Positions 1,379 through 62,100 of a stretch of 64,000 nucleotides of DNA are shown piece after piece; position 1 is the stretch's first letter; each line of letters opens with the position of its first letter. The stretch spans positions 44,178 to 108,177 of the forward strand of contig CALVMV010000004.1 of the NCBI GenBank assembly GCA_944349375.1, written 5' to 3'. Both the position numbers and the translations under genes were made by a program. The notes beneath the pieces are model-generated. The model was given only the letters and a program-made list of their open reading frames with translations. It was not told the DNA's origin and searched no databases. This stretch comes from an uncultured Clostridia bacterium. Lineage in GTDB: Bacteria; Bacillota; Clostridia; Christensenellales; UBA1242.

Positions 1379-2251
1379 TTAGCCTATCACCCTAGAAGTT
1401 GCAATTGCTAATGCTCCATCTCCAATATGGCATGCTACCGATAAAGAAAGAGGATCTATAAAAGTGAGTTCGACATTAGGAATTTCTTTTCTAATCTGTT
1501 CTGCAAAAGCTTGGGCTTTGGCTAAACAATTAGTATGAGCAACGTATAATCTCATCTGGCCCTTTTTTACATAATCTTTAAATCTTGTTTCTAAATCTTT
1601 TTTTACAGCACTTATCATTTTGGCACAAGCAACTTTTTCGTTTAAAACTTTTGCAAATTGATCTAATTTTCCACCTTGAATTTGCAAAACTGGCTTTATT
1701 TTTAATAAAGTTCCTATAGCTGCTGCAGCGGGAGTTATTCTGCCACCTTTTTTCAAATATTTTAATGTTGAAACCATTATATAGATGCTGTTATTACTTT
1801 TGTTTTCTTCAAGCATCTTTTTTATTTCTTCAGCACTAAATCCTTTTTTTGCTAGTTCTATCGCATCCAAAACAGATTGCTTTAAAGTTACTGAAATTGC
1901 ATGATTGTCCACAACTTGAACTTTGCCTTCAAATTGTTTAGCAAAGTTTTTAGCAGTTTCACATGACATGCTTAAAGCGCTTGACATCGGCAAGTGAACA
2001 ATCTCATCGTATTTTTTTAAAATTTCTTCCCACATCTCTACTATTTGACCTATGGAAGGTTGGGATGTTGAGATGTTTTGATTCGACAAAAGCTTTTGAT
2101 AAAATTGCTCTTGTGTCAAATTTATATCTTCAAAAAATTCTTCTTCTCCAATCATAAATGGCATTGGAACTATGAACAAATTTTCTATTTGTTCTGCTTC
2201 CTTTCCTGTTAATCCTGAATTGCTATCTGTTATTATCGCTATCTTCTTCAT
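1379..2251 (-). CDS. DegV family fatty-acid-binding protein
   Basis: KIAIITDSNSGL start, a length of 290 aa, and the general DegV pattern. It lies 2 nt upstream of the SDR gene. Confidence 0.85.
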   Translation of the reverse strand: MKKIAIITDSNSGLTGKEAEQIENLFIVPMPFMIGEEEFFEDINLTQEQFYQKLLSNQNISTSQPSIGQIVEMWEEILKKYDEIVHLPMSSALSMSCETAKNFAKQFEGKVQVVDNHAISVTLKQSVLDAIELAKKGFSAEEIKKMLEENKSNNSIYIMVSTLKYLKKGGRITPAAAAIGTLLKIKPVLQIQGGKLDQFAKVLNEKVACAKMISAVKKDLETRFKDYVKKGQMRLYVAHTNCLAKAQAFAEQIRKEIPNVELTFIDPLSLSVACHIGDGALAIATSRVIG

Positions 2252-2276: not shown

Positions 2277-2927
2277 TTATCTATCTATATGGAAAATATT
2301 AAAATCTATAAATGAGCCTAAAAAGTGAGTGTATTGCAATCTTCCCGAATATCCTACTTTCATTCTAGATTTATGCTTATTAAAGTATGCTCTACATTTT
2401 TTATTCACACAAATATATCTTGGCTCTCTGGTTAATCCACACCAAGCCCATGCAATGTCCCTAAAAAGTTTTTCGTGGATTTGTTCCATATAAATAGATT
2501 TTTTCTCACAATAAGGACACTTCATATCGGTTTTTTGAAATGCCATCATCTTAAAAGCATTTACTCTGAATTTTATAGTGTCTAAAACAGAATCCTTCCC
2601 ATCAAAGTCTTCTTCACTAGTATCGGATTCTGTTTGTTCTTGCTCCTGCCCTTGATTCTCTGTGTCGTTTTCAGCTGTGCTTTGCTTTTGATCAGAGCCA
2701 TTATTATCATTGTCTCCATTAGCATAAGCACTCTGAGCACCTATATTGCCACCATATAAACTGCTTTGATCCTGACTTTCCTCGTTTATGCCATTTTCTT
2801 CTTCCGCATCTTCCCCTTGCATTCTGCTTCTAAACTTGGCTCGTAAATCTTTGTTTGCACCATCTCTTTGAGAAGTGGAAGAATTTTGATTCCTTCTTTT
2901 CTTATCATAATCTTTTGGTAATAACAT
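2277..2927 (-). CDS. Hypothetical protein with an acidic low-complexity N-terminal half and a C-terminal Cys4 zinc ribbon
   Basis: Start moved to the ATG at 2927, which follows AGAGGAAAT. CPYC...C(x4)KKC cysteine pairs are present. No family recognised. Confidence 0.5.
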   Translation of the reverse strand: MLLPKDYDKKRRNQNSSTSQRDGANKDLRAKFRSRMQGEDAEEENGINEESQDQSSLYGGNIGAQSAYANGDNDNNGSDQKQSTAENDTENQGQEQEQTESDTSEEDFDGKDSVLDTIKFRVNAFKMMAFQKTDMKCPYCEKKSIYMEQIHEKLFRDIAWAWCGLTREPRYICVNKKCRAYFNKHKSRMKVGYSGRLQYTHFLGSFIDFNIFHIDR

Positions 2928-2974
2928 ATTTCCTCTCGAGTTTATTATACACAAAAAATATTATTTTACAAAAT

Positions 2975-3005: not shown

Positions 3006-3239
3006 TTAATCAATCCAGAGCACTTTACCTGTAATAAGCAAGCAGATAATATCTACAAGCCACATGAATGGAATTCCGATAACAATAAGAAGAACTGCTA
3101 AAACAATACCGATTACACTATTCTTGTTAATAGATCTAGCAAGACGGTAAATGTTCCAAACAATATCTAGAACTGGCAATGCAAGAATAATTTTGATCCA
3201 TAAAGCCAATCCTTCCATTCCTTTGATAAAACTTTTCAT
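3006..3239 (-). CDS. Small integral membrane protein (two hydrophobic spans)
   Basis: 77-aa ORF with two clear hydrophobic segments. AGGAGGG lies upstream of the ATG. Confidence 0.5.
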   Translation of the reverse strand: MKSFIKGMEGLALWIKIILALPVLDIVWNIYRLARSINKNSVIGIVLAVLLIVIGIPFMWLVDIICLLITGKVLWID

Positions 3240-3415: not shown

Positions 3416-3501
3416 GCGGAAGTGGCGGAATGGCAGACGCGCAGGTTTCAGGTACCTGTGGTAGAAATACCATGTGAGTTCGACTCTCATCTCCCGCACC
3501 A
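3416..3501 (+). tRNA. tRNA-Leu (anticodon CAG), class II with long variable arm, CCA encoded
   Basis: Manual fold. The anticodon stem CAGGT/ACCTG encloses loop TTCAGGT. The long variable arm is TGGTAGAAATACCA, the T-arm is GTGAG-TTCGACT-CTCAT, and the 3' end is ACCA. There is one A-C mismatch in the acceptor stem. Confidence 0.9.
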
Positions 3502-3626
3502 AAACTATTTTGTTTTTTATTTTACAAATTTACTAAAAGAAAAAATATTATAAATACAATTAGTTAAATTATTTAATACATTTATTAAAACTTCGCAAAA
3601 ATACAAGAAAGATAAATGGGAGACTT

Positions 3627-3806
3627 ATGGAATATAGAGTCATAAAAATTAACGAACTTGATAAAGCAAACGAATTGTATCGCTATGTAATAAAATTTTG
3701 TAAAACTTGGGATTGGAACGAAAATTATTCAAGCTTAAAAATGATTGAGGAAGATATCGTAACTACTAAATTTTCATTCTTTATAAAACCGACAGAACCA
3801 ACATAA
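3627..3806 (+). CDS. Small hypothetical protein (59 aa), below the ORF-track cutoff
   Basis: ATG at 3627 preceded by GGGAG. Translation is MEYRVIKINELDKANELYRYVIKFCKTWDWNENYSSLKMIEEDIVTTKFSFFIKPTEPT. No family recognised. Confidence 0.3.
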   Translation: MEYRVIKINELDKANELYRYVIKFCKTWDWNENYSSLKMIEEDIVTTKFSFFIKPTEPT

Positions 3807-3968
3807 TAAACTACGACCAACTTGAAAAAGAACTAATAAAAGATCTTAAAAAACACAACAAATATTAAATCTTAACATTATTTTCTAAATAACTCATACA
3901 ATTATTATTTTACAATAACAATATAACAAAAAATAATATTTAAAAAGTTTGTATTATATATTTAACAT

Positions 3969-5546
3969 TTAAAATTTTTCAACTTCTTCATTATTTTCTA
4001 TAAAATTCTTTTTTTTTAACTCAATTTTTTTTAACCCTTCTTTATCAAGGTTATATACTTCATTACAAATTTCATTGATAAATTTTCTATCATGGGATAC
4101 GGTAATAATGACACCATTAAATTTTTTTAATACCCCTCTTATAATAGGATTAGATAATGGGCTTAAATTTCTAGTTGGCTCATCCAAAACTAAAACATTA
4201 TTTTTTTGAACTATTAATTTGGTTATTAAGATCTTAGCTTTTTGTCCTTCACTTAAATCAGATATTTTATGCTCCATTTCTTCTCTCGTAAATTTTAAGC
4301 ATCCTAACAATGTTCTAGGATTTAATTTTGAATTAGCCTCTTGTAATTCTTCAACTGGTGTTGCAGAATAATTTAAATTTTCACTATAATTTTGAGAAAA
4401 ATACCCTATTTTTAAACCACTTGTATTTTGTAAAACAGGCAAAATTGTTTTTAAAAATGTAGTTTTCCCGCAACCATTATTTCCAGTGATTGCAACTTTT
4501 TGTGGACCAAAAATTTTAAATTCTATATTTTGAGATAACTTTTTTCCACCTACTTTCAATTCTTTTATATTTACATCTATAACTTTCTTTTGATTTGGTA
4601 CTACAATATTTTTATCAACTATTAAATTAATAGCTTCCTCAACTTCAGGAATTTCCGTTAATTCTTCATCTTGTAATTTTTTTTCTTGAGCTTTTATATT
4701 TGCCATTTTTTTTGCAACTATGCGACCATTTGATGGATCCTTTTTAGATGCATTTAATGAATTTTCCACCTTTTGTTTTATTTGTCTTAATATTTCTTCT
4801 TGTTTAGCTTTCTCCCTTCTTTCGTTATAAGCTATTTGCGTTTGTTTCTCAATACCACGTCGTCGAGAGTCAATATATTCGTCATAGCTACATTTCGCTA
4901 AAGTAAACTTCGGTTTAGATTTTTTCATCAATTGTTCTATGTGTAATATTCTGTTTGCACAATTTTCAAGCAAAGTTTCATCATGAGAAATAAAAATAAT
5001 TGGCAACTCTGAACTTTTTATAAAATTTTCTAACCATTCTAAAGTATTTATATCTAAATCATTCGTAGGCTCATCTAAAAGTAAAACTGTTGGATTTTTA
5101 CATAATATTTTTACCATTTGCAATTTTACTTGCTCTCCACCAGAAAGATTTTTTATTAAAGTATTATCTTCGAGTATTTTTTTATCAAGCCCAAATTCTG
5201 TTAATTTTTTTTCTATCTTATCAAAATACTCATAGACCGCATAATCATCTTCTGAAGAGGGATTTTCTTTTAAAAAATAGTCTAAAATAGTAAACGCTCC
5301 CCAATTGTTAGATAGCTTTTGTTCCAAATATCCTAATATTTCACCTCTTGTGTCAATTGTGCCCTGCACATTACAATATGACGAAATAAGATCTTTATCA
5401 TAAATTGCCTTTAACAATGTTGACTTACCATTTCCCTCTTCTCCAATAATTGCAAGCCTATCTTCTTTATTTAATGAAAATGACAAATCTTCAATTAATT
5501 TCCTGCCCTTAATAGTTTCTATAGAAACATTTTGTAACTTTAGCAT
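3969..5546 (-). CDS. ABC-F family ATPase (two ABC cassettes, no transmembrane domain)
   Basis: Walker A GEEGNGKST and GNNGCGKTT, signatures LSGGEQ and LSEGQ, Walker B LLLDEPTNDLD and VLVLDEPTRNL. A charged K/E/Q-rich linker of about 100 aa joins the cassettes. The ATG abuts the stop of the upstream radical SAM gene (TAAATG). Confidence 0.85.
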   Translation of the reverse strand: MLKLQNVSIETIKGRKLIEDLSFSLNKEDRLAIIGEEGNGKSTLLKAIYDKDLISSYCNVQGTIDTRGEILGYLEQKLSNNWGAFTILDYFLKENPSSEDDYAVYEYFDKIEKKLTEFGLDKKILEDNTLIKNLSGGEQVKLQMVKILCKNPTVLLLDEPTNDLDINTLEWLENFIKSSELPIIFISHDETLLENCANRILHIEQLMKKSKPKFTLAKCSYDEYIDSRRRGIEKQTQIAYNERREKAKQEEILRQIKQKVENSLNASKKDPSNGRIVAKKMANIKAQEKKLQDEELTEIPEVEEAINLIVDKNIVVPNQKKVIDVNIKELKVGGKKLSQNIEFKIFGPQKVAITGNNGCGKTTFLKTILPVLQNTSGLKIGYFSQNYSENLNYSATPVEELQEANSKLNPRTLLGCLKFTREEMEHKISDLSEGQKAKILITKLIVQKNNVLVLDEPTRNLSPLSNPIIRGVLKKFNGVIITVSHDRKFINEICNEVYNLDKEGLKKIELKKKNFIENNEEVEKF

Positions 5547-6902
5547 TTACACCTCCAATTTTGATATTAATTGTTGGATTCTTTTTTTAATAATTTTTTT
5601 ACATTCATTATTTTTATAAATATTACGATCTATATTTTCAATTATATTTTTTCTAATACGAGGACACAGTCCTTGGCAATATTTTATATATTTACAAGAA
5701 AAACATTTTGAGTTATTTACATTCATTAAAGACATATTTTCAACAAAATCCAAGGTAATATCTGAATTGTCATAGGGGTCACAATTATTATTTAATCTTT
5801 CTTGAATAGTCCCAATTTTAAAATTTTCATCAAATACATTATTCCAACATCTATACAAATTGCCATTGCTATCTAAAACAATATCTTTTGTTAAACTTTC
5901 TGCTATACAAAATGTATTTAAATTTGAAACCATTAGATTTGCATTAACCAATTTTTGTTTGTAACAAATATCAAAAAGTTCTTCACGATATTTTTCATAT
6001 TCAAACAAATTAAAAGAATTTATCGAACCAAAAACTCTAGCTATATCAACAAATATGTATTGTCCAAAATATTTTTTTTCTAACAAATTTGTAATTTTTT
6101 CTAAAAATTGCTTTATACTTTGATAATTTTGTTTATCTACATTTAATCTAATTACAATTTTTATTTTATTTTCTGCACATTTATTAATATTATAAATTAT
6201 TTTATCAAATGTATTAATTTTACATTTATTTGTTCTTCGTGAATTATGGAACTCTTTTTCACCATCTATGGTAATTTGAATAAAATCACAATCTTCAAAC
6301 TGTAAATGCTTTATGAAATCTCCGTCAATTAAATAACCATTCGAAATAATATTAAAATGAAACTTTATATTCTTTTCAACGCATAAATTTTTAACTTTTT
6401 CATTAAATTTTATTATAAAATTTTTTTCTAAAGTTGGTTCTCCACCATAATAAACAATTTTTAAATCTTTAACATAATCTAAAGTAACTTTATCTATATA
6501 CTGGTATAAATATTCCGATGTTTTTATTAAATTTGAAGAACAATTTTCTTTTTTATTGAGATTTTCCCTTTCGAAACAATAAGGGCAGCAAAAGTTGCAT
6601 AAGTTTGTTATTGCAAAATCTATTTTTACACTTTCTTTTTCTGATGAGTATTTAGAAATATTATAAGTCAACTTATTTCTATTTTTTATTTCTTCATCAA
6701 AATTTGATTCAACTAAAAATTCTTGATCAATTAAAACAGCTATTTCATCTTCCGAAAATATTGCTATATCTTTGTTTTTTTTAAATAATATAATTTTTTT
6801 ATAACTTTCTAAATCTAAAACAATCAACGAACCATTATTTGTATTAAAGAGGAACTTTTTATTATTAATATTAAAAATCTCACAATAATTTGTTAATTCC
6901 AT
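5547..6902 (-). CDS. Radical SAM/SPASM-domain peptide maturase
   Basis: CNFCCPYC (CxxxCxxC) cluster plus C-terminal Cys-rich SPASM-like motifs (CFSCKYIKYCQGLCP, NECKK). Start set to the ATG at 6902 (MELTNYCEIF), which follows AGGAGTG. The longer track start at 6944 would run through a hairpin. Confidence 0.85.
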   Translation of the reverse strand: MELTNYCEIFNINNKKFLFNTNNGSLIVLDLESYKKIILFKKNKDIAIFSEDEIAVLIDQEFLVESNFDEEIKNRNKLTYNISKYSSEKESVKIDFAITNLCNFCCPYCFERENLNKKENCSSNLIKTSEYLYQYIDKVTLDYVKDLKIVYYGGEPTLEKNFIIKFNEKVKNLCVEKNIKFHFNIISNGYLIDGDFIKHLQFEDCDFIQITIDGEKEFHNSRRTNKCKINTFDKIIYNINKCAENKIKIVIRLNVDKQNYQSIKQFLEKITNLLEKKYFGQYIFVDIARVFGSINSFNLFEYEKYREELFDICYKQKLVNANLMVSNLNTFCIAESLTKDIVLDSNGNLYRCWNNVFDENFKIGTIQERLNNNCDPYDNSDITLDFVENMSLMNVNNSKCFSCKYIKYCQGLCPRIRKNIIENIDRNIYKNNECKKIIKKRIQQLISKLEV

Positions 6903-6921
6903 TTGCACTCCTATAAAATAA

Positions 6922-6946
6922 AGATGAGATAATATATATCTCATCT
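6922..6946 (-). promoter_or_regulatory. Intercistronic stem-loop between the precursor peptide and maturase genes
   Basis: Perfect 9-bp stem AGATGAGAT/ATCTCATCT with a 7-nt loop. On the transcribed strand it is followed by TTATTTTAT and then the maturase RBS. Confidence 0.4.
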
Positions 6947-6958
6947 AAATATCATGAC

Positions 6959-7051
6959 TTAACATCCACCATAATGAGAGCAAGGTCCACAAAGAAATTG
7001 TTTAGTAGATACTTCCTTCACTGATTTTTGTTTTTTTAAAACTACTTTCAT
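6959..7051 (-). CDS. Putative RiPP precursor peptide (30 aa): MKVVLKKQKSVKEVSTKQFLCGPCSHYGGC
   Basis: Not in the ORF track because it is too short. The ATG at 7051 is preceded by AGGAGGGAGAAA. A Lys-rich leader is followed by a C-terminal 10-residue core with 3 Cys. It lies directly upstream of the rSAM/SPASM gene. Confidence 0.6.
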   Translation of the reverse strand: MKVVLKKQKSVKEVSTKQFLCGPCSHYGGC

Positions 7052-7082
7052 TTTCTCCCTCCTTTATTAGAATTTTATCATA

Positions 7083-7664
7083 TTATATGTTATTTGTCAA
7101 CAAAAAAGATACAAGTTCTTTTTTTGTAATTTTTACATCCATATTTGACAAAATTAATTCTTTTAATATTTCTTTTTGGGTGACGTATAAATACTTAATA
7201 TATAACATTGCTGAATAATAGTAATCAATATTAAACTTAAAATATTTTTTTAATTTATTTAAAGGAATAATATTTATTTTGTTTGCTTTATCCTTTACTA
7301 TATTTCTTGCTAACAGTGTAGCTAATCCTTCAGATAACCATAAATCTATATTTTTATTAATATTATAAAGAATTGCATGTATTATCTCGTGATGCAATAT
7401 TTTACAAAATTCTAAATCAAAGTTTTTGAAAGAATCTTGATTTATGTATATATTGCCATCTTCCATAAACATAATCGCATAATTATTAAAATTTTCATCT
7501 AAACTCTTAATGAATTTTTTACGAGTTATTACAATTATTTTTATACTAATCTCTTTGTTAAAATTAATAATACACTTGATTTGTTTAATTGATAAATCAA
7601 GCAATTTTTTCGCTAATTCATATAACCTTTTGCTTTTATTTCCATTGACAATAATTTTATCCAT
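7083..7664 (-). CDS. Putative zinc metallopeptidase (HExxH...E gluzincin, peptidase-MA-like)
   Basis: HEIIH followed 15 residues later by the E of WLSEGLATLLA. It is the first gene of the operon, 31 nt upstream of the precursor ORF. Confidence 0.55.
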   Translation of the reverse strand: MDKIIVNGNKSKRLYELAKKLLDLSIKQIKCIINFNKEISIKIIVITRKKFIKSLDENFNNYAIMFMEDGNIYINQDSFKNFDLEFCKILHHEIIHAILYNINKNIDLWLSEGLATLLARNIVKDKANKINIIPLNKLKKYFKFNIDYYYSAMLYIKYLYVTQKEILKELILSNMDVKITKKELVSFLLTNNI

Positions 7665-7726
7665 ATTTCAGTCATTATAGCATACTTTGCTGAAATATAC
7701 AAAAATAAAAATAATAATTTATATCC

Positions 7727-7770
7727 TGGTGCACCTGAGAAGATTCGAACTTACGACAAACCCGTCTTAG
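7727..7770 (-). pseudogene. tRNA 3'-end-like fragment (T-arm, acceptor 3' strand, CCA), not a complete tRNA
   Basis: The minus strand reads ...GTAAGTTCGAATCTTCTCAGGTGCACCA. No matching 5' acceptor strand or anticodon stem could be folded from the adjoining sequence. Confidence 0.35.
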
Positions 7771-7818
7771 GCAGAAGAATTATCAAAAGCGTTCTCCCCT
7801 TATGAAAAAGTCTTTTAA

Positions 7819-8145
7819 TTAGGAGAAAAGCTCATCAAATTAAAAGATGAATATTCCAAGTCAGAATACAGCAAGGAAAAAGCTGATGAAATTAGTGATT
7901 TAGAAAAATTTATTGAACAAGAATGCTCAAAATTTGATCCCCAACTATTAATAGATGTGTCAAAATATAGAAAAGAATATTTTGTAAATAAAACAACTGA
8001 AGAGAAGTTATATAAAGATGGCGGTGTAACAATAAACATAACAAACGATATTGAAAATTCACCATATTGTCAAAGTGCCGATCTTATCAATTCTTCAGCT
8101 AATAAACTATTTTTAAAACAACTAGATGAAATTCTTTATAGTTAA
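7819..8145 (+). pseudogene. Open frame of 108 codons without an ATG/GTG/TTG until 7957; possible 5'-truncated gene remnant
   Basis: The frame is open from the TAA at 7816-7818 (LGEKLIKLKDEYSKSEYSKEKADE...). The only start candidate is the GTG at 7957. No family recognised. Confidence 0.3.
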
Positions 8146-50184: not shown

Positions 50185-53100
50185 ATGTCAAAGAAAATAA
50201 TTAAAAAATTATCAACTCTTGCTCTTGCAATTCTTAGTTTGGGAGTTGTTTTTTTGATGTTAGGATTGGTTAATTTAAATTCTAAGGCAGAAGAATCTTT
50301 ATCTGATAATTCTGTTAACTTTGATCAGTCAGAAGCTTGGGTTGATGAAATTGTATTAGGTGCGGCTTCAATTACAAATGAAAACCATTTTGGTAAAACT
50401 TGTATGGTTATTGATAGTGCTGAGGATTTAGCGCAGGTAGCATATGAAGTTTCGCAAGGGACAAACTCATCTTATACGAATGGTTATTTTTATTTGGCTC
50501 AGGATATTAATTTGCGAGGGAAGTTGTGGACTCCTATTGGAACGACAACCCATCCTTTTTCAGGGACTTTTTTCGGTAATGGATATAAAATTTCAAATGT
50601 TGTGATTTCTCAGGCATCCATAATTTCTGGCAACGATATTGGTTTGTTTGGTGCCGTTACTGGTTCTATTGTTGATTTAACTGTAGAAGGGGCGTTTGGT
50701 GTATCCTCATTAGTAGATTCTTCAACAAATAATATTGGACATATTGCAGGAAGTTTGCAAAGCTCGGGAGAAATTATAAACTGTTTTGATGAAATGATTG
50801 TTTCACTTCAAGATGGATTTAAATCTATTGGTAATACGGCTTCTTCGGCTAAAGTAATTTATCCTTCAAGCAAAAATGGTATCGAAGAAGGATTAACTAC
50901 CGTCGAAGATATGCAATCTAAAATATCTTTTAATGGAACTCCACAAACAGGATATTCAGTTTATTACAATACAAATGTAGCTGCAACTAGTGGCGATATA
51001 GAGGGAACTGGTGTAGGATTTTATCAAAATGGAAATTATATTTTTTCAGGAAATAAAGAAGAATCTCAACAAGTAAGAGTAGCTTTTGCAAATGTTTCTG
51101 AAGATACATATTCAAGTATTATTACTTTAAATAATCCTTTATATTTTTCTCAAACACCTTTACTTAGAGAATCTGCCGTTGGAAGCCAAGTTTATGTTTT
51201 AAGAACGGGTTACAAAGCAACATTTTCTGCGCCTTCATTAGAAAATAGTGGAATTGTAAACATTTCATGGAATCAAGCGACAGTCAATGTTTCTTACAAT
51301 TATGGCTATGGCTCAAGAACGGTGAATTTTGAAACTCCTTATGACAATCCTTGGACTAACGTAATTGCTACAAAAGAAATTGTAAGGCTTGGTTATCAAT
51401 CTAATACTTTATATAGTGAATCTTCAATGCAAACTCTTCTTAATACAACTGATAGAGCGAATTATGTTTCTTATTATGCAAAGAACGGAGATTGCGTTTA
51501 TATAAAATGGTCAGATCCAAAAAATTTGACAGGTAAATTATATGTTGGTGCAGACACTAACGAAGGTGGCTCTTTTAAAAATCCTTCTGCAAGCAATGCT
51601 TATTCAAATTTAAATGTTTCTGGTGCAGATGTTCTTAGTCAATCTTCAAATTATAGCGATCTTTCTAATATAATTGCTGGGCAAGATGTTGTTATCAATT
51701 TCTCATTAAATTCAGGTTATACATTCCAATTAGCAGGATTAGGAACAAACTTGCTTACAAAAAGTTCTTGGGACGGAACAGGGATTACTAATTTGACTAC
51801 TGGAGCTTATACATATTACCCTAATTCGACCGGAAAGGATAGCGACGGTCAAAGTTATATTATCGGTACAGATGGAGGATATTATGATGCATATACTCCT
51901 ATAGAAATTAAGGTGGAAAAATCAGATAGTAATTTCACTATTACAATTAAAAACATCGTTGATAACGGTGGAGAAATAGTTTTATTGTTCGGAAGAGAAC
52001 AGAAAGAAATATCTATTCAAGGAACAGGTTTGGATAGATTAAGCAGTGCCACTATAATTAATCACGAGGCGAGCCAAACTTCTTTAGATTGGGAAAGCAA
52101 AACAATAACTACCAAAATTGGGGAATCTTTTGATTTTGTTGTTTCATCAGTAGGGCAAGATTATTTTATCTTATCTAGATCGGTAAATGGTTTTGTTTGC
52201 GACAATATCATTGAAGAAGAAGAGACCCCTGTTGGAGAAAGTAAGTTTTATCAAAAAATTACATTTGAAATAAATGCCTTTTCTCCAGAACCAGCTGTAG
52301 AAGATTATTATATAACACTAAATATTAATAGATTATTAACTTATATAAAAGTTCAAATCGGTGAAGAAGGAAAATTTTTTGATAATGTTGCAGAAAACAG
52401 AAAGGCGACTGTTTCTGTTTCAAGTTCGGGAATAGAAAGTATGTCAACTAATAGTCAAGTTACATTACAGGTCCCTATGACAACAAACACGACTATTACT
52501 TTTAATGCAAATGGATTTTATTCTTTAGCTTCTGTGGACGGAGTAAGTGTTCCTTTTGAAAACAATGCTATATCTCAAACTTTTTCAAAATTTTCTAATG
52601 ATCCTTCAGCTCCAGCTTATATCATAACATTTAATCCAACAAAGAATTATTATAATTTAAACATAGTTTATATGATAGATGGGATAGAAGTTTCTAAAGA
52701 AATCGCTGAAAAATTTGTAAAATTTAATGGAAAAACTTCAAGCTTAGACTTTGAACAAACAGAAAATTACTCTTTAAAACTCACAGAATCAGCGAAAACA
52801 TGGTTAAAATATGATTTTTCTATCCAAGCTAGCGATTTAGGAAACAATTCAACAGGATATCAAGCTTCTGTATTAGAAGGGGCAAGTTCTGGTCTGTTAA
52901 ATGCTTCTTTCGATTCTGAAAACGCAACAAGTTCTTTTAATTACAAACCAGGAACTTTTAATTCAACTTTAACTATTAATTTGTCGAGAAAAGAAATTAA
53001 TGTAAACTTTAATAACTTAACACTAAATGATGATAAAACAATTCTTCCAGATTCTAGTTCTCTTTATGGGAGTATGACTTTAAAATATGATTATAACGGA

Positions 53101-56100
53101 ACAGGATCTTTAAACATTACAGGAGGTGGATTCAGTTCTATTTCAATTGAAAATGGATACTATCTTGTTGGGTGGTATTTGACTGGTGGAAAAACAATTA
53201 CTGCATTTTCAAATAACGACCTTATACAAGATGTAGAATTCAGGAATTTTATATCACAGTCAGCATCTGGTAATAAAAATTCTCCTATAACAGTTTCGGT
53301 TAGTCCACTGGTTGAAAAGAGAGTAGTTAGATTATCTTATAGTGCTAATGGTGAAGGTGAACAACAAGGAGTAAGTTCAGATGATTTAATAACTGCTCCA
53401 GAATATGTTTATGGAAGTGCTCCAATTGCTTTAAGCACTGAAAAATTTAAGAAAATCGGTTATAGATTTAATAGTTGGTCAACAGAATTTGGAACAATTT
53501 CCGATAATCAATACTCTTTGACAGGTAATGCATGGAATACATTGTGGGAAAATAGTGCAGGGCAGTCTAAACATTCTTGGACAAGTTTTGCAAGTTCTGA
53601 TGAAGAAAAATATAAAGATGTTATTTTAACAGCACAATTTGAAGCTTTAGTTTATACTATTTCAGTAGATTCGTTATCAGAAATCAATATTTCAATAGGA
53701 CAAACAATCAATTTTGTTGCCGCTGGCAATGGAGAATATGCAACTTATACAAATAACGAGACACAAGCCACAGTAACAGGTTCATCACTTGCAGGTTACA
53801 CTGCAATATCTTTTGTGATAAAAGGGAACATTACACCTGAAGTTACTGAAAATAGTTTAACAAGTTTTGTGTTAAGCTTGGATAATATTAAAAAATTTAT
53901 TTCTGTAGAGAATTATTATTCAGTATCAGAAACTGCAGAGTTGACAATTAATACAGAAAGAGAAGCGAATACTTACAAAATTTATATTCAATCAAACTCT
54001 AACAAATATTATACTGTTTCTTTAGCTGAAGGGACTACAGCAGAACAAGGTGGAATTGATGCAACAGGAACTTATGTCCTTGTAAAATATAATGAGCTAC
54101 CTGCCAACTTAGATAAAGTTTCAGTAGTGCGTAATGGTTACAATCATGTTGGTTTTACTTATAACTCAACAGATTTTGATGCGTCACAAAAATACACTAT
54201 AACAAGCGATATTACAATAATTCCTAAATTTGAGAGAGATGAAAAAAGTGATTTTGTTAAAAATCAAATTGTTTTAACTGAAAGTGATGTTTTTAAAACC
54301 CAAAACAAGGTTACTGGAAAAAACTATGAATTTTATTTAGTAAATGGAACTACAGAAACAATTATTAGTGCAAACAATATAAGCAATTTTGGAAATGGGG
54401 ACATTGTAAGCGAACAACTTTTTAAAAGCAAAAATTCGGAAGTAAGTAGAATTGGCAGAGACATATCATTTGATTATATTATTAATAAAGTTATGGAAGG
54501 GATCCTTGACGGGACAAATATTGAACTTCAATATGTTGTTACAATAATAGATTCGTTATCCGGTGAGACTTATGATTTAACATATGATGTTCATGCTTTC
54601 TCAATCTTGCCTAATGAAATCGTTTTTGAAAATTTATCTTTAAAAACATATTATACAGGAACTAGCGATTATCTTGCTACTGAAGATTCTAATTTTGGAA
54701 ATGTTTTAGATTTCAAATACGATTTAAATGGAGAAGTTCTTTTAAAAGAGGAACAAAACACTGAATTAATTAATGACTTTATCAACACAAATCAATATCA
54801 GGTGAATGTGTCTGGAGATGATTATAATGTTGGAACAAAAAATGTTAGGATTATTTTCAATGGAACAGATGTCGGAAATAACGTGGAATATATTTGGTCA
54901 AATGTTAAATCAGAATCTAAAGATAGTTTCTATGTTGATATTGAAAATGGAATTGAAATAGTTGAGAGTCCTGCTGTTATTACTTTTGATTCTAGCACAG
55001 GTATTTATGTTGAAGGGCTTGTTCAAACTATTGCGCAAAATGTTTCTAATCAAACTTTTAATGTTTTATCAAATCCTAAATATCAATTTACTTATTCTTT
55101 TGACAGCTTAACATTAAAAAATAATGCTGTAGGAACATACACAGGTTCAGAAGACCATACTTTAGATCAAGAAAAATTTGAAGTAACGAATTTTGTAGTT
55201 AAAAATGGTCAAGAAGTGGTAACTGGCAACTTTGAATGGGTTATCTCTAAAAACTCTACATATCAAGTTGTAGGTGGTGAAGGTTTTAATGCCGTTGAAT
55301 ATAGATATGAACCTAGGTATTTTACAGCTTCTAATGGTTCGTTAACAGGTATTACAGAAGGTTGGGGTGAACTTGGAAGAGAAAACATTTTCACTATTTC
55401 GGAATTGATGTTTGACGGTGTAAAAGTAAAACCAAACAATGGCGCAAATTTTGCATCACAATATAACCACATAGTTGATGGACAGATTTATTTTACTATT
55501 ATTGGAAATAATTCTTCAAAACTTGTTATTAAGTTAAACAATGATTTGATTGGTGGTCATACAATAACATTTAACATAACTGTAAGTGATGCACTTGAAG
55601 AAGGGCTTGTATTGTATAGCTGGCAAAATAATTTTGATATTGATGACTCTATCTTTGGTTCAATTGTTGCGACAAAGACTATTGATTTTGAATATGGCAC
55701 TACAACAGAAGGTAGCCATTATGCAATTTATACAAACGCAACAAAGGTAAATGTTGACTATAATTTGTCAGGCATTAAAAATGAAACTATTTATGTTGCA
55801 TATGGAGAAAATTACGATTTAAGCAACCCTATAGACAGTACAAGCGAATTAACTTTCAATGGATACCAATTAACAGGAAGTGGGCTTTCTATTGCAGATA
55901 GTGAAGGCAAAAAAGTTTTAAGCAACACAAATTCTGGTAGTTTGGCAAGCTTAAAAGCAAAATGGACTCTTTCAAATGTTTCTGTGTCGCAATTAGAAAC
56001 AGAATTTACAATTTCTCCTTTAGGAGTTGCTCCTACTAATGATTTTGATTTTACTACTATCTTTAGTACTTCTCCACAAAGAGCAAGTTTATCTTCTGAT

Positions 56101-59100
56101 CCATACACTGTAGTTAAAGTTGTGGCAGAAGGTGAAGATGTTGCCCTTGTTTTAAAAGGAAACAAAGCAACATTGCCTTATGTTGATAGTGAGTCTCAAT
56201 TAATAAATGTAGCTTCTAACCAAGGAGAATATAAGATTTCAATTACTTTTGCTTATAATGATAGTTTTGAAACTTCGTATTTTACAAAAGAAATTACATT
56301 TACTATCAATGTTGTAAAAGATGAATTAACAATAAATAATTTAAATACTCTTAATGGTTCTTTAACTTTTGCTAACATTGATTACGCCGATACATTCAAA
56401 GTAGGATATTCTTTAACAAGTCGATCATTCTCTGAAGAAACAACAACTCCTATAGAAAAAACAATTTCTCAATTATCAGATAATGCAATTTTCAATCCAG
56501 AGGAAATTGTTCAAAAAGATTGGGAAAATCAAACTAACTACTTCAATGTGTCTATCACTACTCCATATTCTGCAAATGATATGTATTATGCGGGAGAGTA
56601 TAGTTTTGACTTTGCTCTTTGGGATATTTGGAGTGGCTATATTTCGATAAAAGCAAATACTGACACATCTTTAACTCAAACTGTAAATATTGCAAAATAT
56701 ACAATCAATCTTGCTAAATATAATAACGACATTAGTACAGGTAAACTTTTAGGATTGAATGATCCAGATGTAATATCTGATACAATCACTATTACAGAAA
56801 CAAACAATGATGAAGTTGTTATAACATTTAGTGGCAGAGAAAATGAAGATGTCGATGTCGTTGGTAGTTATAAATTGCTTATTAATAAAGAGAGTGCTTT
56901 AAGTGAAGAAGATAAGAAAAATTATGATTTAAATATTGATGGTTTTGAAGCATACTTTGTTATAGCTAAAAACGAAAATGGTCAAGTAGTTGTAACTTTA
57001 CCTAATGGTTTCCACATGACTTACAATGGAAGCGAAATAAATTCTTTTGAAGTTGCTGTTGTAGATGGAAAATTTGTTTTAAAAGCAATGTCTTCTACAG
57101 AAGCGAAACAAACTATAGACTTGCAGGTTAAAATCTTGGTTGGAGATCAGCAATATGATGTAGCACAAAGCGCTATGGAAACATTAGCAGGTATGATAAA
57201 GATTGCGTTTGCAAGTGATCCTTTTGCTAAAGATTATAAAGAAGGCGGTTACTTATTAAATGCTAGTTTAAGTGGTGATGCTACGGGAGATTTTAAATTT
57301 ATTGCATTTGGCGAAACATCTGATAGCAAGTTCTATATTGACAAAGCCCCTATCACTTTAAAACAAGTTGAAAAGACTTTTGATAAAACAACTGATTTTA
57401 CAAAAGAAACGGTTAGATCATTCAATGGAGCTATTGGTGATGAAGTTTTAGATATAGAAGGAAGATTTGCTTCAGCTCATGCAGGCAGTCAATCTCTTGA
57501 AAGCCTGTCTATTACTGGAAATACTAGTCAAAACTACTATATTGAAAATGCAGATTTTAAAGGAACTATTTTAGCAAAAGCAGTTTCATCTGTAACTATT
57601 GAAATAGGAAAAGATGAATTTGTTTATGGTCAAATTTCACAAAGAATAACGCTTGAACAGTTGCTCGAAATGTTTGGAACTGTTACTGTGAATATTGATG
57701 GAGATATTTTAACAATAGGTTCTAACGAGTTTGTTGATATTCAAGATTTTACAATAGAAAATGCTAAATATTCTACAGCTAAAAAATTGTCAGCAAATCA
57801 AGATGGTTATAATTTCTTCTTAACATTATCATCTACTGATTACACTGGGCTCAATGGAGCAGAAGGCAAAGGACAATCGGTAAATGTTGTTATAAATCAA
57901 AAAGTTTTAGATTTGTCAGCAACTGAAATTTCTAAGGTTTATGATGGAACAACAAAATTGCCTATAGATATTGATTGGGTTGGTTTTGAAGATGTTGAAA
58001 GTGGAGATGTTGTAAGCGTTGATACTTCTTTATCTCAATTTGTAAGCAAAGACAAAGGAACAGATATTGCAATTAATATTGTCTTTACAGGTGCTGATGC
58101 TTCTAACTATAGAGAAAAAGGTTCTGTAGTTGGAGACATAACTACTGTAAGAATAACCTTGAAAGTTAATGTAACCGATAACTTACCAAATGATAATGAT
58201 GGAAGCGAAGGTTTCATTGATGGAGATAAAGAAATAATCAATAGCGGCTTAGAGATTGTTATAAATTATCCATTTGATGAAGGACAAGACTTGCAATCTA
58301 TTATTGATTCTTGGGCAAAACCTTCAAGAGTTGGTTACAATGTTACAGGTTATAGTTATAAAACTGAAAGTGGCTCTTTTGAAAAGTTGACTGAAACAAA
58401 CTTGCCTGATTTCTTAGAAAAAATTGCTGTAGCTGAAGGCGAAAAATCAGCTTACATTTATCCTAATTGGGAAAGACAATCATTTACTGTTACTATAAGT
58501 GGAAATAATATTGCAAGTTTGGATAGTTTAGAAGGATTATCATCTGGGGTAGGTGATATAACTTCAGGATCTATAACTTATAATATCGGTTATTATGAAA
58601 GTTTCAGTTTTACAGTTAAGACAAAACAAGGATATAAAGTTTCTGAATTTGTTATTTCTAACACTTATGTTTCAAAAGAAGAAGGAGAGAAAGGAACAAA
58701 CTCTTGCTCTCTTGCTATTACCAATGTAACAGGTAATACAACTATTGAGATTAAAACAGTTTCAATAACTATTTCATTTGTTATAGACAAAAACATTCCT
58801 GTTGTGGAAGGGGTGAATATTGTTGAAACTTCTTCTGACACATGGACTAACAAAACAATCAATTATTCCGAAATTTTAGATGATCAAAAACTAGTTGATT
58901 TCTTACCTAAATTTACTGTTACTGATTGGACTTTTGATTTGGTAGGATTCAAAAACGGTGAAAATTTAGTTAATGTCGATAGTGAAAAATTGTTGAAAGC
59001 ATATATTGATGCAAATATTGATTATGCTACAGATGCAATTATTAATTTGACTGCACAATGGCAAGGTCAAACATATACAATTCATTTTGATGCAAACGGT

Positions 59101-62100
59101 GGAAGAATAAGTGATAATTATGATGCAACAGCAGTTTTTGGAGGAAAGATAACTTTACCTGAAGACAAATCTGATTTCCCTGTTGCAGTTATGGAAGGAA
59201 AGGTTTCTTCTTACTATGATGCTTTGCAAGATGGCAAGCCATATACTAAAGACACAACATTTACTACAATTGGCGCAAATAACGAAGTAACATTCTATGC
59301 TATTTGGTCAGATGGTATATTTGATATTACATTTGATATTGACAGTAAAGTAACTGTAAAACTCGATGGAAATCCTTTACAAAACACAACAAAACAAATT
59401 TCTTACAGCGAAACTTGGACTTTTGAAATATCTTCAAATGAAGGTTATTCATTCAAAGTAGATTTATCAGATTTCCACGGCAGTTCAAGTTCTGAAACTC
59501 AATCACCTTTTACAATTAATAATGTTATTGCTGATTCGACTATCAAATTTGTTGCTGTTCCAAAAGAAAATACTTTGACTATAACTTACGATAGTTTGCA
59601 TATTGAAAGCGTTGTTGTAGATGAAGTAGAGTATTCTGAGCCAGTTAAAAAATTGACAGGAACAGAAGTAACTATTGTTGTAACTGCTAAAGAAGGATAT
59701 GAATTTGATAACAGCAGTGCATCATTAATTGGAAATAGCACAGGTAAAATCGACAAAGTATTAAGCGAAGAAAATACAGTTTTAACATTAACTTGGAAAG
59801 ATTTTACTACAGATGGAACTATTTCTTTAAGTGCTAAACCAAAGAGTATAAATGTTTCTTGGGAAAAACTATCTAGTTATGCATCTGATATATCAATAAA
59901 CAATCAAAGTTTAACTTTAGATGATGGTTCATTCTCTACTAGAGTAGGACAAGAATTGTCAGTAACAATTACTCTTAAATATGGTTATGAAAATGCAAGT
60001 CTTACAAGTCAAAATGCAACTATTGAAAATGAAAATAATTCTAGTTTAGATTCTAATAAAATAATAACATACACTGCGACAATTAAAGGCTTTACTCAAG
60101 ATTTTGTTATTTCTTTGACAGCTGATGCTAGAAAATGGACTGTTTCTGTTTCTGTTGCCGATTATGGAGAAGAAAACAGAGGGCAAGCACAAATTTCTCC
60201 AAGTGGAGAGAGCAATTTAGTATTCGGTTCTTCTGTAACGCTCACTGCTAGTGCAAGTTCGGTAGCTTATAGATTTATTGGCTGGTATCAAGGAGATGTT
60301 TTATATAATGAAAATGCTTCATTTGTTATAGATGCAAATATTGATAATAAATCATTACTAGAAAGTGGAAATCTTAATTTTGAAGCCAGATTCGATTACA
60401 ATGCTGTAGATTTAACTTTCTCTTCTGGCGTAAATGGGAAACTTGAAGTAAGAGTAAACAATGGACTTCCTTTTGTTGTAGAAGAAGGAACTTCACAAAC
60501 AAAAACAGTATTTGTAAGTGATAAAGTTGTAATTGTTTTCTTCCCTAATTCCGGTTATGAGTTAGACACTTTTAAAGCCGATGAAGACGATAAAACTTCA
60601 GATATCAGTGGAAATTCTTATACTTTTGATGTCGTGGCTAATAGCTATTCTTCATTTAGTGCAACTTTCAAAGCAAGTGAAGTTTATGTAGATGTTAAAG
60701 TTGCTGTGCAAGTTAACTTTGTAAACTATGAAGGTCTTGAAGATGGTGGCAAACTTTATCTTGTAGATAATTTAGGAACTATTCTTGAGGAAGGATATTT
60801 ACAACCTTCTAGTGGAGACTTGATAGAAGGTATAAACTACAAAGTTTTAACTTATACTGATCAAAGTTTCTATTTGATGGCTGAATCTAACCCAGGATAT
60901 AGTTTCTCCTTAGATGTTAAATCTGGCTTTGCTTCTATTGATCAAATAACTCTTTCTAATGGAAAAACTATCTACAAAGTTTCAAATGCACAAGACTTGT
61001 CTTCTCTTATGGGTATCTTTAAAGCAGAAGAACAACGAGTTGAAATTATGTTCGTGACCGATGAAGAATCATCGACAATAGCTGCTGCAGGAAAAATTCA
61101 ATTAACAAATAACACTGTACCAGCTAATGCAAGTGGAAACAACTCGGAACACCTTACTATAGTTACTATAACTGGTGCTAATATTGAGTTAGCTATTTCG
61201 ACTAATTTCTACTATAAGTTAATTAGTGATGAAGATGGAAATGTTTCTGTAGTTGTAACAGGTTCTCAATCTGGATTTGAATTTAGTAAAGGAATTGTTC
61301 AAGAAATAGATGCAGAAGAAACAATGCTCACTGGATTTACTTACACTTCTACATTGTCTTTAACAGGCGTAAATTCAAATATAACAATTAAAATATTAGT
61401 AGAACCTATTTCTTACAATTTGAAATTCTTTATAGATGAAGATGACAGTGGCGTTTATGATCCTATTACTATCAACAATTTGATTTATGGTCAAAATATA
61501 GATTTATCTTCGCTTACATCAGAAGAGCGTAATAGGCTAACAAAAAGCAGAGATGGCTTTACGCTTATGGGCTATTACACAAAACAACTAATGCAAGGAA
61601 CTCAATATTTAGATAGTCAGTTAATGGCTACAAACATTTGGCTTGAAAAACCTTACATCTTTGATGGATCTAAGTATAAAGAAAATTCTAATTTTGATGC
61701 AGAAACCAAAACATTTACTTTATATGCAGGTTGGTCTTACGATAAAGCAAAGGTTACTGTGGACTTTATCCCTGATGCTTTAAAAGATTTGTTAACAGAA
61801 GTGTCTATTTCTGATATCATTACAAACATCAATCAAACAATTTCTTGGGTTAGCCCAGACAATGTTTGGGTTGGAGAATTTTCTGTAGCTTCTCCTTTAA
61901 CACTTGAACTTTCAGCTTTCGTATCTGATGGATACCAATTCGCTTATTGGGTTGTTGAAAATGAAGATAAGACAATTGAATATACAAATGCTAAGTTGTC
62001 TTTAACAGAAATGAACAAAGGGGATTATACTATTACAGCAATTTATTATCCTAAATATTCGATAACTATTGAAAGTAATAATACAACCGACCCTAGTCTT

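Follow-up and report, generated by a model that had tools for sequence, protein, structure and literature searches.

A short Cys-rich peptide, a radical SAM/SPASM enzyme and an ABC-F ATPase form a conserved three-gene cassette in uncultured Clostridia

The DNA analyzed here is a stretch of 64,000 nt (hereafter the window) from an uncultured Clostridia bacterium (GenBank contig CALVMV010000004.1, positions 44,178 to 108,177), and our subject is a compact group of four genes on its minus strand. A preliminary description had read these genes as an operon for a ribosomally made, post-translationally modified peptide (RiPP), composed of a peptidase, a 30-aa precursor, a radical S-adenosylmethionine (SAM) enzyme and an ABC-F ATPase. 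All four open reading frames (ORFs) are present where that description placed them, and the motifs it named can be read in their products. The gluzincin signature HEIIH...E is found in the 193-aa ORF at 7664–7083 (HEIIH, then WLSEG), both CxxxCxxC and a SPASM-like Cys cluster occur in the 451-aa radical SAM protein, and the ABC-F, described as soluble, has two ABC ATPase domains on one chain without a membrane domain. The strong ribosome-binding site assigned to the 30-aa ORF is there as well, lying 5 nt 5′ of the ATG. The features of the locus, with the evidence for each, are as follows.

7083..7664, minus strand: HExxH mini-gluzincin, 193 aa (ORF, conserved residues, AlphaFold2 (AF2) model)
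7072..7100, minus strand: the precursor's promoter-like site, TTGACA, 17 nt, TG-n-TAAAAT (consensus match only)
7057..7064, minus strand: Shine-Dalgarno sequence of the precursor, AAGGAGGG (read from the sequence)
6959..7051, minus strand: precursor peptide gene, 30 aa (ORF, conserved block in 9 distinct loci)
6912..6946, minus strand: 10-bp stem-loop with a T-rich tract after it, which may act as a partial terminator or as an attenuator (fold prediction)
5547..6902, minus strand: predicted radical SAM/SPASM peptide maturase, 451 aa (family matches, Cys conservation, AF2 model)
3969..5546, minus strand: ABC-F ATPase, predicted ribosomal-protection type, 525 aa (family match, PDB relatives)

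The start codon of the ABC-F gene abuts the maturase stop codon with zero gap. For the maturase itself, the mechanical ORF opens at 6944, and the ATG at 6902 is the start backed by all homologues. G+C content is 19–28% across 3500–8000, compared to ~30% in the flanks. There is no second ABC-F gene in the window, and an Rfam scan of the cluster returned nothing beyond the flanking tRNA.

A database search with the maturase yielded a tight clade of ~24 proteins at ≥253 bits, with the next match at 115 bits. We read 9 distinct loci of the window's type (A-type), which come from five GTDB species and from contigs of metagenomes; all of the hosts are uncultured Clostridia from rumen or gut, and they include Candidatus Onthoplasma faecipullorum. 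The gene order peptide–radical SAM–ABC-F recurs in 9/9 of these loci, with the ABC-F gene directly after the radical SAM gene, and the small ORF adjoins every maturase homologue read. The ABC-Fs are 57–64% identical to that of the window. Neighboring genes are otherwise unrelated (DegV/nucleoside hydrolase; OGG/NUDIX; YhhN/Fe-ADH; tilS/tRNA-Leu). Recurrence of the same order in 9 distinct loci of other organisms indicates linkage far beyond chance, and, because the surrounding genes differ from one locus to another, it follows that the cassette moves as a whole. Seven further radical SAM/ABC-F pairs are indicated by records on contigs of equal size. Pairwise identities of the radical SAM protein and the ABC-F correlate (r = 0.86), with higher conservation for the ABC-F (65% versus 54%). 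These comparisons, which are of sequence, demonstrate that the three genes are linked, co-evolving and under selection. The conserved unit thus contains three genes rather than four: the precursor, maturase and ABC-F of the proposed four-gene operon belong together, and the HExxH gene lies outside the unit. In one locus (L010 5941–7323, from an uncultured Lachnospiraceae), the maturase is split into ORFs of 135 and 319 aa, with precursor and ABC-F intact; the split may reflect a pseudogene or a fault in the assembly.

The 30-aa peptide, MKVVLKKQKSVKEVSTKQFLCGPCSHYGGC, is made up of a basic leader, MKVVLKKQKSVKEV, followed by a conserved block, STKQFLCGPCSHYGGC. A core of about 10 residues (CGPCSHYGGC) had been proposed earlier; comparison of the loci lengthens the conserved part to 16 residues. 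The consensus S-[T/I]-[K/I]-Q-[F/Y]-L-C-G-P-C-[S/A]-H-[Y/L]-G-G-C, plus 0–2 residues, ends the ~30-aa ORF in 9/9 distinct loci, and neither CGPC nor GGC varies among the A-type precursors. Codon differences within the block number 223 synonymous versus 64 non-synonymous, which points to purifying selection on the amino-acid sequence. By this measure, the 30-aa ORF encodes a genuine peptide that is under selection. The promoter-like site upstream is sigma-70-like, with 11/12 matches and an extended −10 element, and it overlaps the 3′ end of the HExxH coding sequence; TTGACA/TATAAT-type sites, again consensus matches, also lie 5′ of the precursor in the other cassette loci. GGAGG precedes the precursor in the same position in all related loci. 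In the window, the hairpin sits between the precursor stop codon and the ribosome-binding site of the radical SAM gene. A stable hairpin begins 0–13 nt 3′ of the precursor stop in 8/8 loci folded, and its sequence differs in each.

The maturase has the residues expected of a radical SAM/SPASM enzyme. CxxxCxxC corresponds to C102, C106 and C109; C106 is conserved in ≥90% of 21 homologues, and the other two are invariant; Pfam Radical_SAM scores 52.8 bits (cut-off 29.5). The seven SPASM cysteines (C332, C352, C400, C403, C409, C413 and C434) are all invariant, and TIGR04085 (SPASM) scores 44.6 bits (cut-off 27). Among the curated NCBIfam equivalogs, the top relatives, given as bits/cut-off, are TIGR04463 (165/525), CefB (161/600), FlmE/OhkG (152/500) and Clo7bot (140/600), followed by geopeptide (123/400), PapB (89/340) and SCIFF (53/425). 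No cut-off is reached, in line with the preliminary description, which could assign the combination to no named RiPP family. The protein groups with peptide-modifying radical SAM/SPASM enzymes, and anaerobic sulfatase maturases (anSME) score far lower relative to their thresholds (TIGR03942, 81/349; PRK13758, 73/441). These enzymes also lack the N-terminal domain found here.

That domain is seen in the AF2 model of the maturase (predicted local distance difference test (pLDDT) score 88.7), in which residues 7–59 form three strands and then two helices (β-β-β-α-α; pLDDT ~95) ahead of the radical SAM barrel. The closest full-length structural match is CteB (5WGG; TM-score 0.65), which carries a RiPP recognition element (RRE); anSME, SuiB, SkfB and ChlB come next. 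We therefore regard the N-terminal domain as RRE-like in its modeled fold. CteB and other SCIFF maturases of Clostridia have the same domain order as the window maturase (N-terminal RRE-like, radical SAM CxxxCxxC, seven-Cys SPASM), and they likewise have a short Cys-rich substrate encoded immediately upstream and a Clostridia-class anaerobe as host. However, sequence identity to CteB is only ~20%, TIGR03974 gives 53 bits against a cut-off of 425, the SCIFF precursor has ~45 aa with 6 Cys rather than 30 aa with 3 Cys, and SCIFF loci lack an ABC-F. The model supports a leader-guided, peptide cross-linking enzyme, whose chemistry is not fixed by the likeness to CteB. By analogy, we infer thioether chemistry.

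The ABC-F is the most conserved and most informative partner in the cassette. It contains two PF00005 (ABC_tran) stretches, and the Walker A/B, signature and H-loop residues are invariant in both ATPase domains. The top relatives in the PDB are ABC-Fs bound to the ribosome, led by VmlR2, and the best curated family is the ribosomal-protection-like NF000355 (315 bits over the full length, cut-off 380), which a related ABC-F from another locus (L017) passes at 412.5 bits. The linker between the domains, which is helical and roughly 115 aa long, exceeds that of E. coli Uup by ~20 residues and falls ~9 short of that of VmlR2 in pairwise HMMER alignments. Judged by these residues and relatives, the ABC-F is catalytically intact and of the ribosome-protection type. 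Named families of antibiotic resistance (ARE) ABC-Fs (Vga, Sal, CplR, Msr, Lsa, OptrA and the producer type) score 149–230 bits against it, with cut-offs of 680–1450, and none is reached. Carriage on plasmids, or close kinship to a named resistance gene, was rejected, as identities to PLSDB entries are too low (≤30% for the ABC-F, ≤33% for the radical SAM protein). PADLOC gave no match for the radical SAM and HExxH proteins, only generic ATPase matches for the ABC-F and no system-level match; with nothing specific found, a known anti-phage defense system was rejected.

Could the ABC-F supply the ATPase for an exporter that has its membrane subunits encoded at another locus? It does match ABC_tran, and it would be scored as an exporter by mining pipelines that filter on co-localized genes for ABC transporters. 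A published atlas of radical SAM RiPPs was filtered in this way (PMC10288494), and hence such clusters may already sit in datasets with the ABC-F taken for an exporter. The architecture argues otherwise, since the protein consists of two ATPase domains fused through a long helical linker, with no membrane domain; all strong PDB relatives are ribosome-binding ABC-Fs or EF3, and NCBIfam groups the protein with ABC-F. To our knowledge, no ABC-F powers transport. We reject the exporter function on architecture and relatives, and would assign it next to no probability.

The association of a tiny Cys-rich peptide, a probable cross-linking enzyme and an ABC-F suggests an undescribed ribosome-targeting peptide antibiotic with its own protection gene. 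Self-resistance ABC-Fs of antibiotic producers (TlrC/CarA/OleB/SrmB, LmrC and VarM) are likewise soluble two-domain proteins with an extended linker, encoded inside a biosynthetic operon. They differ in setting: known ABC-F self-resistance belongs to actinomycete polyketide, lincosamide or streptogramin pathways or to stand-alone genes, and in no case to a radical SAM RiPP.

A search with the ABC-F gave ~50 proteins at ≥54% identity and then thousands at 46–52%, and we sampled loci from this side as well. One (L015) carries the same cassette as the window. In two others (L017 and L020), ABC-Fs that are 48–50% identical to the window's are found with a different 30–31-aa peptide and a different radical SAM/SPASM protein encoded directly upstream. 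The core of this second peptide (type B) is ...AFHKDSCCGARS, i.e. ...AF[H/S]KDSCCG[A/Q]RS. A further locus (L018) has a third peptide (type C), ...LLDACGCTGNGQC, a third radical SAM gene 2 kb downstream and an ABC-F of the same subfamily. Precursors of all three core types are without NCBIfam or Pfam match; the types share no common sequence motif, and types B and C lack CGPC. The three maturase families do share their top NCBIfam relatives, with scores of 140–212 bits versus cut-offs of 500–600, none of which is reached. For all three, the best full-length relatives are TIGR04463, CefB (NF038107), Clo7bot (TIGR04334) and FlmE/OhkG (NF052473). In human-gut Clostridium sp. CAG:533, the counterparts of the L017 proteins are CDA51959 and CDA51960; the proteins are recorded on ≥1000 contigs, the longest of 1.2 Mb. 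In L020, a 348-aa protein with HxxEH (inverted zincin, M16-like) and a weak M16_C match is encoded directly after the ABC-F (5577–6623), followed by a TM2-domain protein; from its motif, the 348-aa protein may be an alternative leader peptidase.

For controls, we listed 80 loci obtained by metagenome scan, ABC-F family alignment and generic Walker-motif patterns, 76 of which hold distant ABC-Fs (24–30% identity). A related radical SAM gene was found in 0/80 of these, within the flanks read. These data bear on the idea that the peptide acts in redox reactions or binds metal, much as a cofactor does, with the ABC-F linked to it loosely or functionally unrelated. CGPC is the active-site motif of thioredoxin and, like GGC, does not vary in the A-type precursors; moreover, radical SAM/SPASM enzymes also make cofactors, PQQ and mycofactocin among them. 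However, types B and C keep the same partnership without CGPC, the link to the ABC-F is maintained across unrelated neighborhoods and absent from the control loci, and there are no redox partner genes. We give this explanation very little weight.

Subfamily ABC-Fs are also found alone. Among the loci sampled from the ABC-F side, 5/9 (L014, L016, L101, L019 and L102) lack both peptide and radical SAM genes; maturase and peptide without an ABC-F were never seen among the loci read. The stand-alone ABC-F of L014 is 70% identical to the window's and adjoins an integrase gene, and that of L019 adjoins an aminoglycoside acetyltransferase-like gene. Short upstream ORFs (uORFs; MPIKQ*, MQKNYKI* and MYKVIR*) precede several stand-alone ABC-Fs, and the uORF/leader regions map to L016 4800–5003, L014 ~4940–4965 and L019 ~3955–3980. 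In L016, a uORF and then a terminator lie within a strongly structured leader (z = –4.9). In form, these leaders resemble the antibiotic-sensing attenuators of resistance ABC-F genes. ARE ABC-Fs such as VmlR, VgaA, LsaA, MsrE and SalA also share with the cassette the uORF leaders of its stand-alone relatives and predicted 50S target protection.

Alleles from the window's own species exhibit a related pattern. Two recorded proteins (P0239 and P0240) are in-frame fusions of HExxH residues 1–59 to radical SAM residues 358–451. The junction is a 14-nt direct repeat, present twice in the window:

7486..7499, minus strand: 14-nt direct repeat GATGAAAATTTTAA, copy 1, deletion end-point (fusion proteins P0239, P0240)
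5818..5831, minus strand: 14-nt direct repeat GATGAAAATTTTAA, copy 2 (fusion proteins P0239, P0240)

It follows that the allele is a 1,668-bp deletion between the two copies, and with it go the C-terminal part of the HExxH protein, the precursor gene and the larger part of the radical SAM gene. An intact 525-aa ABC-F (P0204) is recorded on a contig equal in size (28,894 bp) to that of P0240. On another contig, a frameshifted maturase allele is split in two (P0211 and P0212). This asymmetry is the pattern expected if the ABC-F is useful alone and a producer cannot do without it.

Members of the ABC-F subfamily repeatedly adjoin rpsF-ssb-rpsR (L017 2468–10136, L014 3595–4837, L101 1–10), which raises another possibility, that the protein is a translation or regulatory factor. 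It might help translate or terminate an awkward 30-aa precursor, or sense stalled ribosomes and switch the operon on, for which LmrC of lincomycin producers provides the model. A precursor of this length would still sit in the exit tunnel at termination; the succession of precursor, hairpin within 0–13 nt, and then radical SAM and ABC-F genes resembles the geometry of a ribosome-dependent attenuator; and many subfamily ABC-Fs stand alone near ribosomal-protein genes. Stall-resolving ABCFs (YfmR, YkpA/YbiT) and the signaling ABCF LmrC have been described (PMC11381351, PMC8546547), which adds to the case. On the other hand, the three core types offer no shared motif to serve as a stall site, no regulator gene is present, and the ABC-F gene lies downstream of the hairpin, so its product is not needed for first-round expression. 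Nor does a helper role predict loss of peptide and radical SAM genes with the ABC-F kept. We consider such a role unlikely.

The HExxH gene is the variable member of the locus. In its product, the Glu of WLSEGLA, the predicted third zinc ligand, lies 15 residues past the second His (HEIIH-x15-E), compared to 18 for the classical M1 spacing, and H92, E93, H96, W109, E112 and G113 are invariant in 18 aligned relatives. Pfam Peptidase_M1 scores 16.4 bits (cut-off 27.7), and a PDB sequence search gave no meaningful match. The AF2 model (pLDDT 89) was compared to known structures using Foldseek. Top matches are weak (best E-value 9.5e-3), and all are zincin metalloproteases, including collagenase G (ColG; TMq 0.57), M1 aminopeptidases such as aminopeptidase N, and the lanthipeptide peptidase EryP. 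An exhaustive search of 1.84 billion representatives turned up only 23 relatives, and a word-based homologue search only the window's own species and the two chimeric deletion products. Among the cassette loci, the gene occurs only in the window lineage and in L001–L003 (27% identity). This restriction to two lineages, the scarcity of relatives and the precursor's own promoter-like site place the HExxH gene outside the conserved unit. AplP and EryP, M1-type leader peptidases of class III lanthipeptides, share with this protein the gluzincin HExxH...E and DLWL(S/N)EG(L/F)A, and leader removal, their role, is what we propose here too. They are, however, multi-domain proteins of ~850 aa with a spacer of 18, whereas the HExxH protein is a stand-alone catalytic domain of 193 aa with a spacer of 15. 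From its motifs and modeled fold, the most fitting role for it is that of an optional leader peptidase, a lineage-specific accessory. No recognizable Shine-Dalgarno sequence precedes the ATG of the gene (7664, minus strand), and a TG-n-TATAAT element ends only ~9 nt 5′ of it; the mRNA may be leaderless.

The cassette is best explained as a three-gene RiPP unit (precursor, radical SAM/SPASM maturase and ABC-F) with an optional zinc peptidase, and the RiPP interpretation of the preliminary description, as amended here, is supported. Two of the conditions on which that description was to be given up, a non-peptide family for the maturase and a small ORF not conserved beside its homologues, were checked, and both checks favored it. 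Our best reading, to which we assign a probability of about one half, is that the product is a cross-linked peptide targeting the 50S subunit, with the ABC-F providing target-protection immunity. Speaking for it are the strict linkage seen from the maturase side and the correlated identities, the partnership of one ABC-F subfamily with three peptide/radical SAM families and its absence from the control loci, the stand-alone ABC-Fs with their uORFs and the decayed alleles, the ARE-like features of the ABC-F, the CteB-like maturase and the selected peptide. Some elements of the scheme have support in the data: the 30-aa peptide is translated from its own putative promoter; the hairpin past its stop codon probably limits read-through, leaving precursor in excess of the enzymes; the maturase is CteB-like in its architecture, with an RRE-like domain for leader binding; and the ABC-F is co-transcribed and co-inherited with it. 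The further steps are predicted. The maturase would bind the basic leader and use radical chemistry to cross-link the three cysteines of the C-terminal block, most likely as thioethers of the sacti/ranthi type. The leader would be cut off by the HExxH gluzincin or, where this is absent, by host peptidases, to give a constrained peptide of ~10–16 residues. This product would bind the large ribosomal subunit, either in the peptidyl-transferase center or exit tunnel or close by. By entering the E site of stalled ribosomes, the ABC-F could dislodge the peptide with its long inter-domain linker and thereby protect the producer. Strains that lose the biosynthetic genes would retain the ABC-F as an orphan resistance gene.

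Several observations weigh against this proposal. The subfamily has thousands of members, several of them beside ribosomal-protein genes, and the ABC-F could hence be a housekeeping translation factor to which peptide/radical SAM pairs were recruited for some other reason. The window ABC-F stays below the cut-off of NF000355 (315 versus 380 bits), although the B-type ABC-F from L017 passes. No plasmid ABC-F in PLSDB is more than 30% identical to the window's by tblastn (the corresponding limit for the radical SAM protein is 33%), and the linker tip sequence is identical for core types B and C despite their different cores. We know of no ABC-F that protects against a RiPP. Finally, the preliminary description noted no exporter, and neither the window locus nor any other locus read has a gene for export, lysis or secretion, leaving release of the product unexplained.

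This last point is what one would predict if the modified peptide were not exported but acted as an endogenous ribosome ligand (a growth brake, hibernation factor or addiction-type toxin), with the ABC-F as its intracellular antagonist. Peptide and ABC-F would then form a switch on the peptidyl-transferase center, in which an ATP-driven antagonist controls growth or dormancy, or they would be an addiction module. The ABC-F gene is translationally adjacent to that of the maturase. Moreover, the whole B-type triad of Clostridium sp. CAG:533 (L017 2468–10136) lies inside the rpsF-ssb-rpsR ... rplI-dnaB region, between rpsR and rplI-dnaB. However, stand-alone ABC-Fs and decaying biosynthetic genes better suit competition and immunity, generic transporters or lysis can release small peptides, and an endogenous ligand of this kind is without precedent. 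In both its forms, ligand and switch, we deem the idea improbable, and rank it below a helper role in translation.

An antibiotic with ABC-F immunity would have company among the translation-targeting RiPPs. Thiopeptides, bottromycin, klebsazolicin/phazolicin and lariocidin are small constrained ribosomal peptides with in-cluster immunity, as proposed here. They differ in having azole, macroamidine or lasso chemistries, and in using exporters, rRNA methylases or ribosomal-protein variants for immunity. Neither radical SAM nor sactipeptides nor ABC-F is mentioned in a 2020 review of translation-targeting RiPPs (PMC7136475), and a full-text literature search, with most subscription journals outside its coverage, found no paper linking an ABC-F with a radical SAM RiPP. 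By its gene content, the cassette would work in the manner of a radical SAM/SPASM RiPP cluster and also of an antibiotic cluster whose self-resistance comes from an ABC-F, and it is in no curated family on either side.

Other features of the window lie around the cluster. A tRNA-Leu(CAG) gene (3416–3501, plus strand) flanks one side of the low-GC region. Just upstream of the HExxH gene, at ~7721–7793 on the minus strand and hence opposite to tRNA-Leu, is a tRNA-like 3′ fragment ending ...GTTCGAATCTTCTCAGGTGCACCA, which was called by neither ARAGORN nor Rfam. An island bounded by tRNA/att sites was considered and rejected, as the tRNA gene and the fragment are on opposite strands, the fragment is uncalled, and there is no att evidence. 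Beyond the tRNA are genes for a 77-aa two-helix membrane protein (3006–3239, minus strand) and a 225-aa acidic low-complexity protein with a Cys-rich C-terminus (2277–2954, minus strand), both without Pfam match. A DegV-family gene occurs within ~2 kb of the cassette or of a stand-alone ABC-F in three unrelated loci (window 1379–2251, minus strand; L001 4264–5133; L019 742–1587). Far from the cluster, a single ORF of 4,426 aa (50185–63465, plus strand) has no Pfam-A match at E ≤ 1e-5.

These findings suggest a simple rule for mining, in which a tiny Cys peptide, a radical SAM/SPASM enzyme and an ABC-F are sought together. This rule already recovers at least three core families, one of them from Clostridium sp. 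CAG:533, and pipelines that count any ABC_tran match as an exporter will have mislabeled such clusters. If our reading is true, the cassette would represent the first class of RiPPs modified by a radical SAM enzyme to have the ribosome as its target and the first RiPP with an ABC-F target-protection protein as immunity. The products, at only ~10–16 residues, would be synthetically accessible as leads and as probes for the peptidyl-transferase center or exit tunnel. Firmicutes of the gut and rumen would then be a reservoir of unrecognized ribosome-protection genes, many of which are orphan copies with the potential for cross-resistance.

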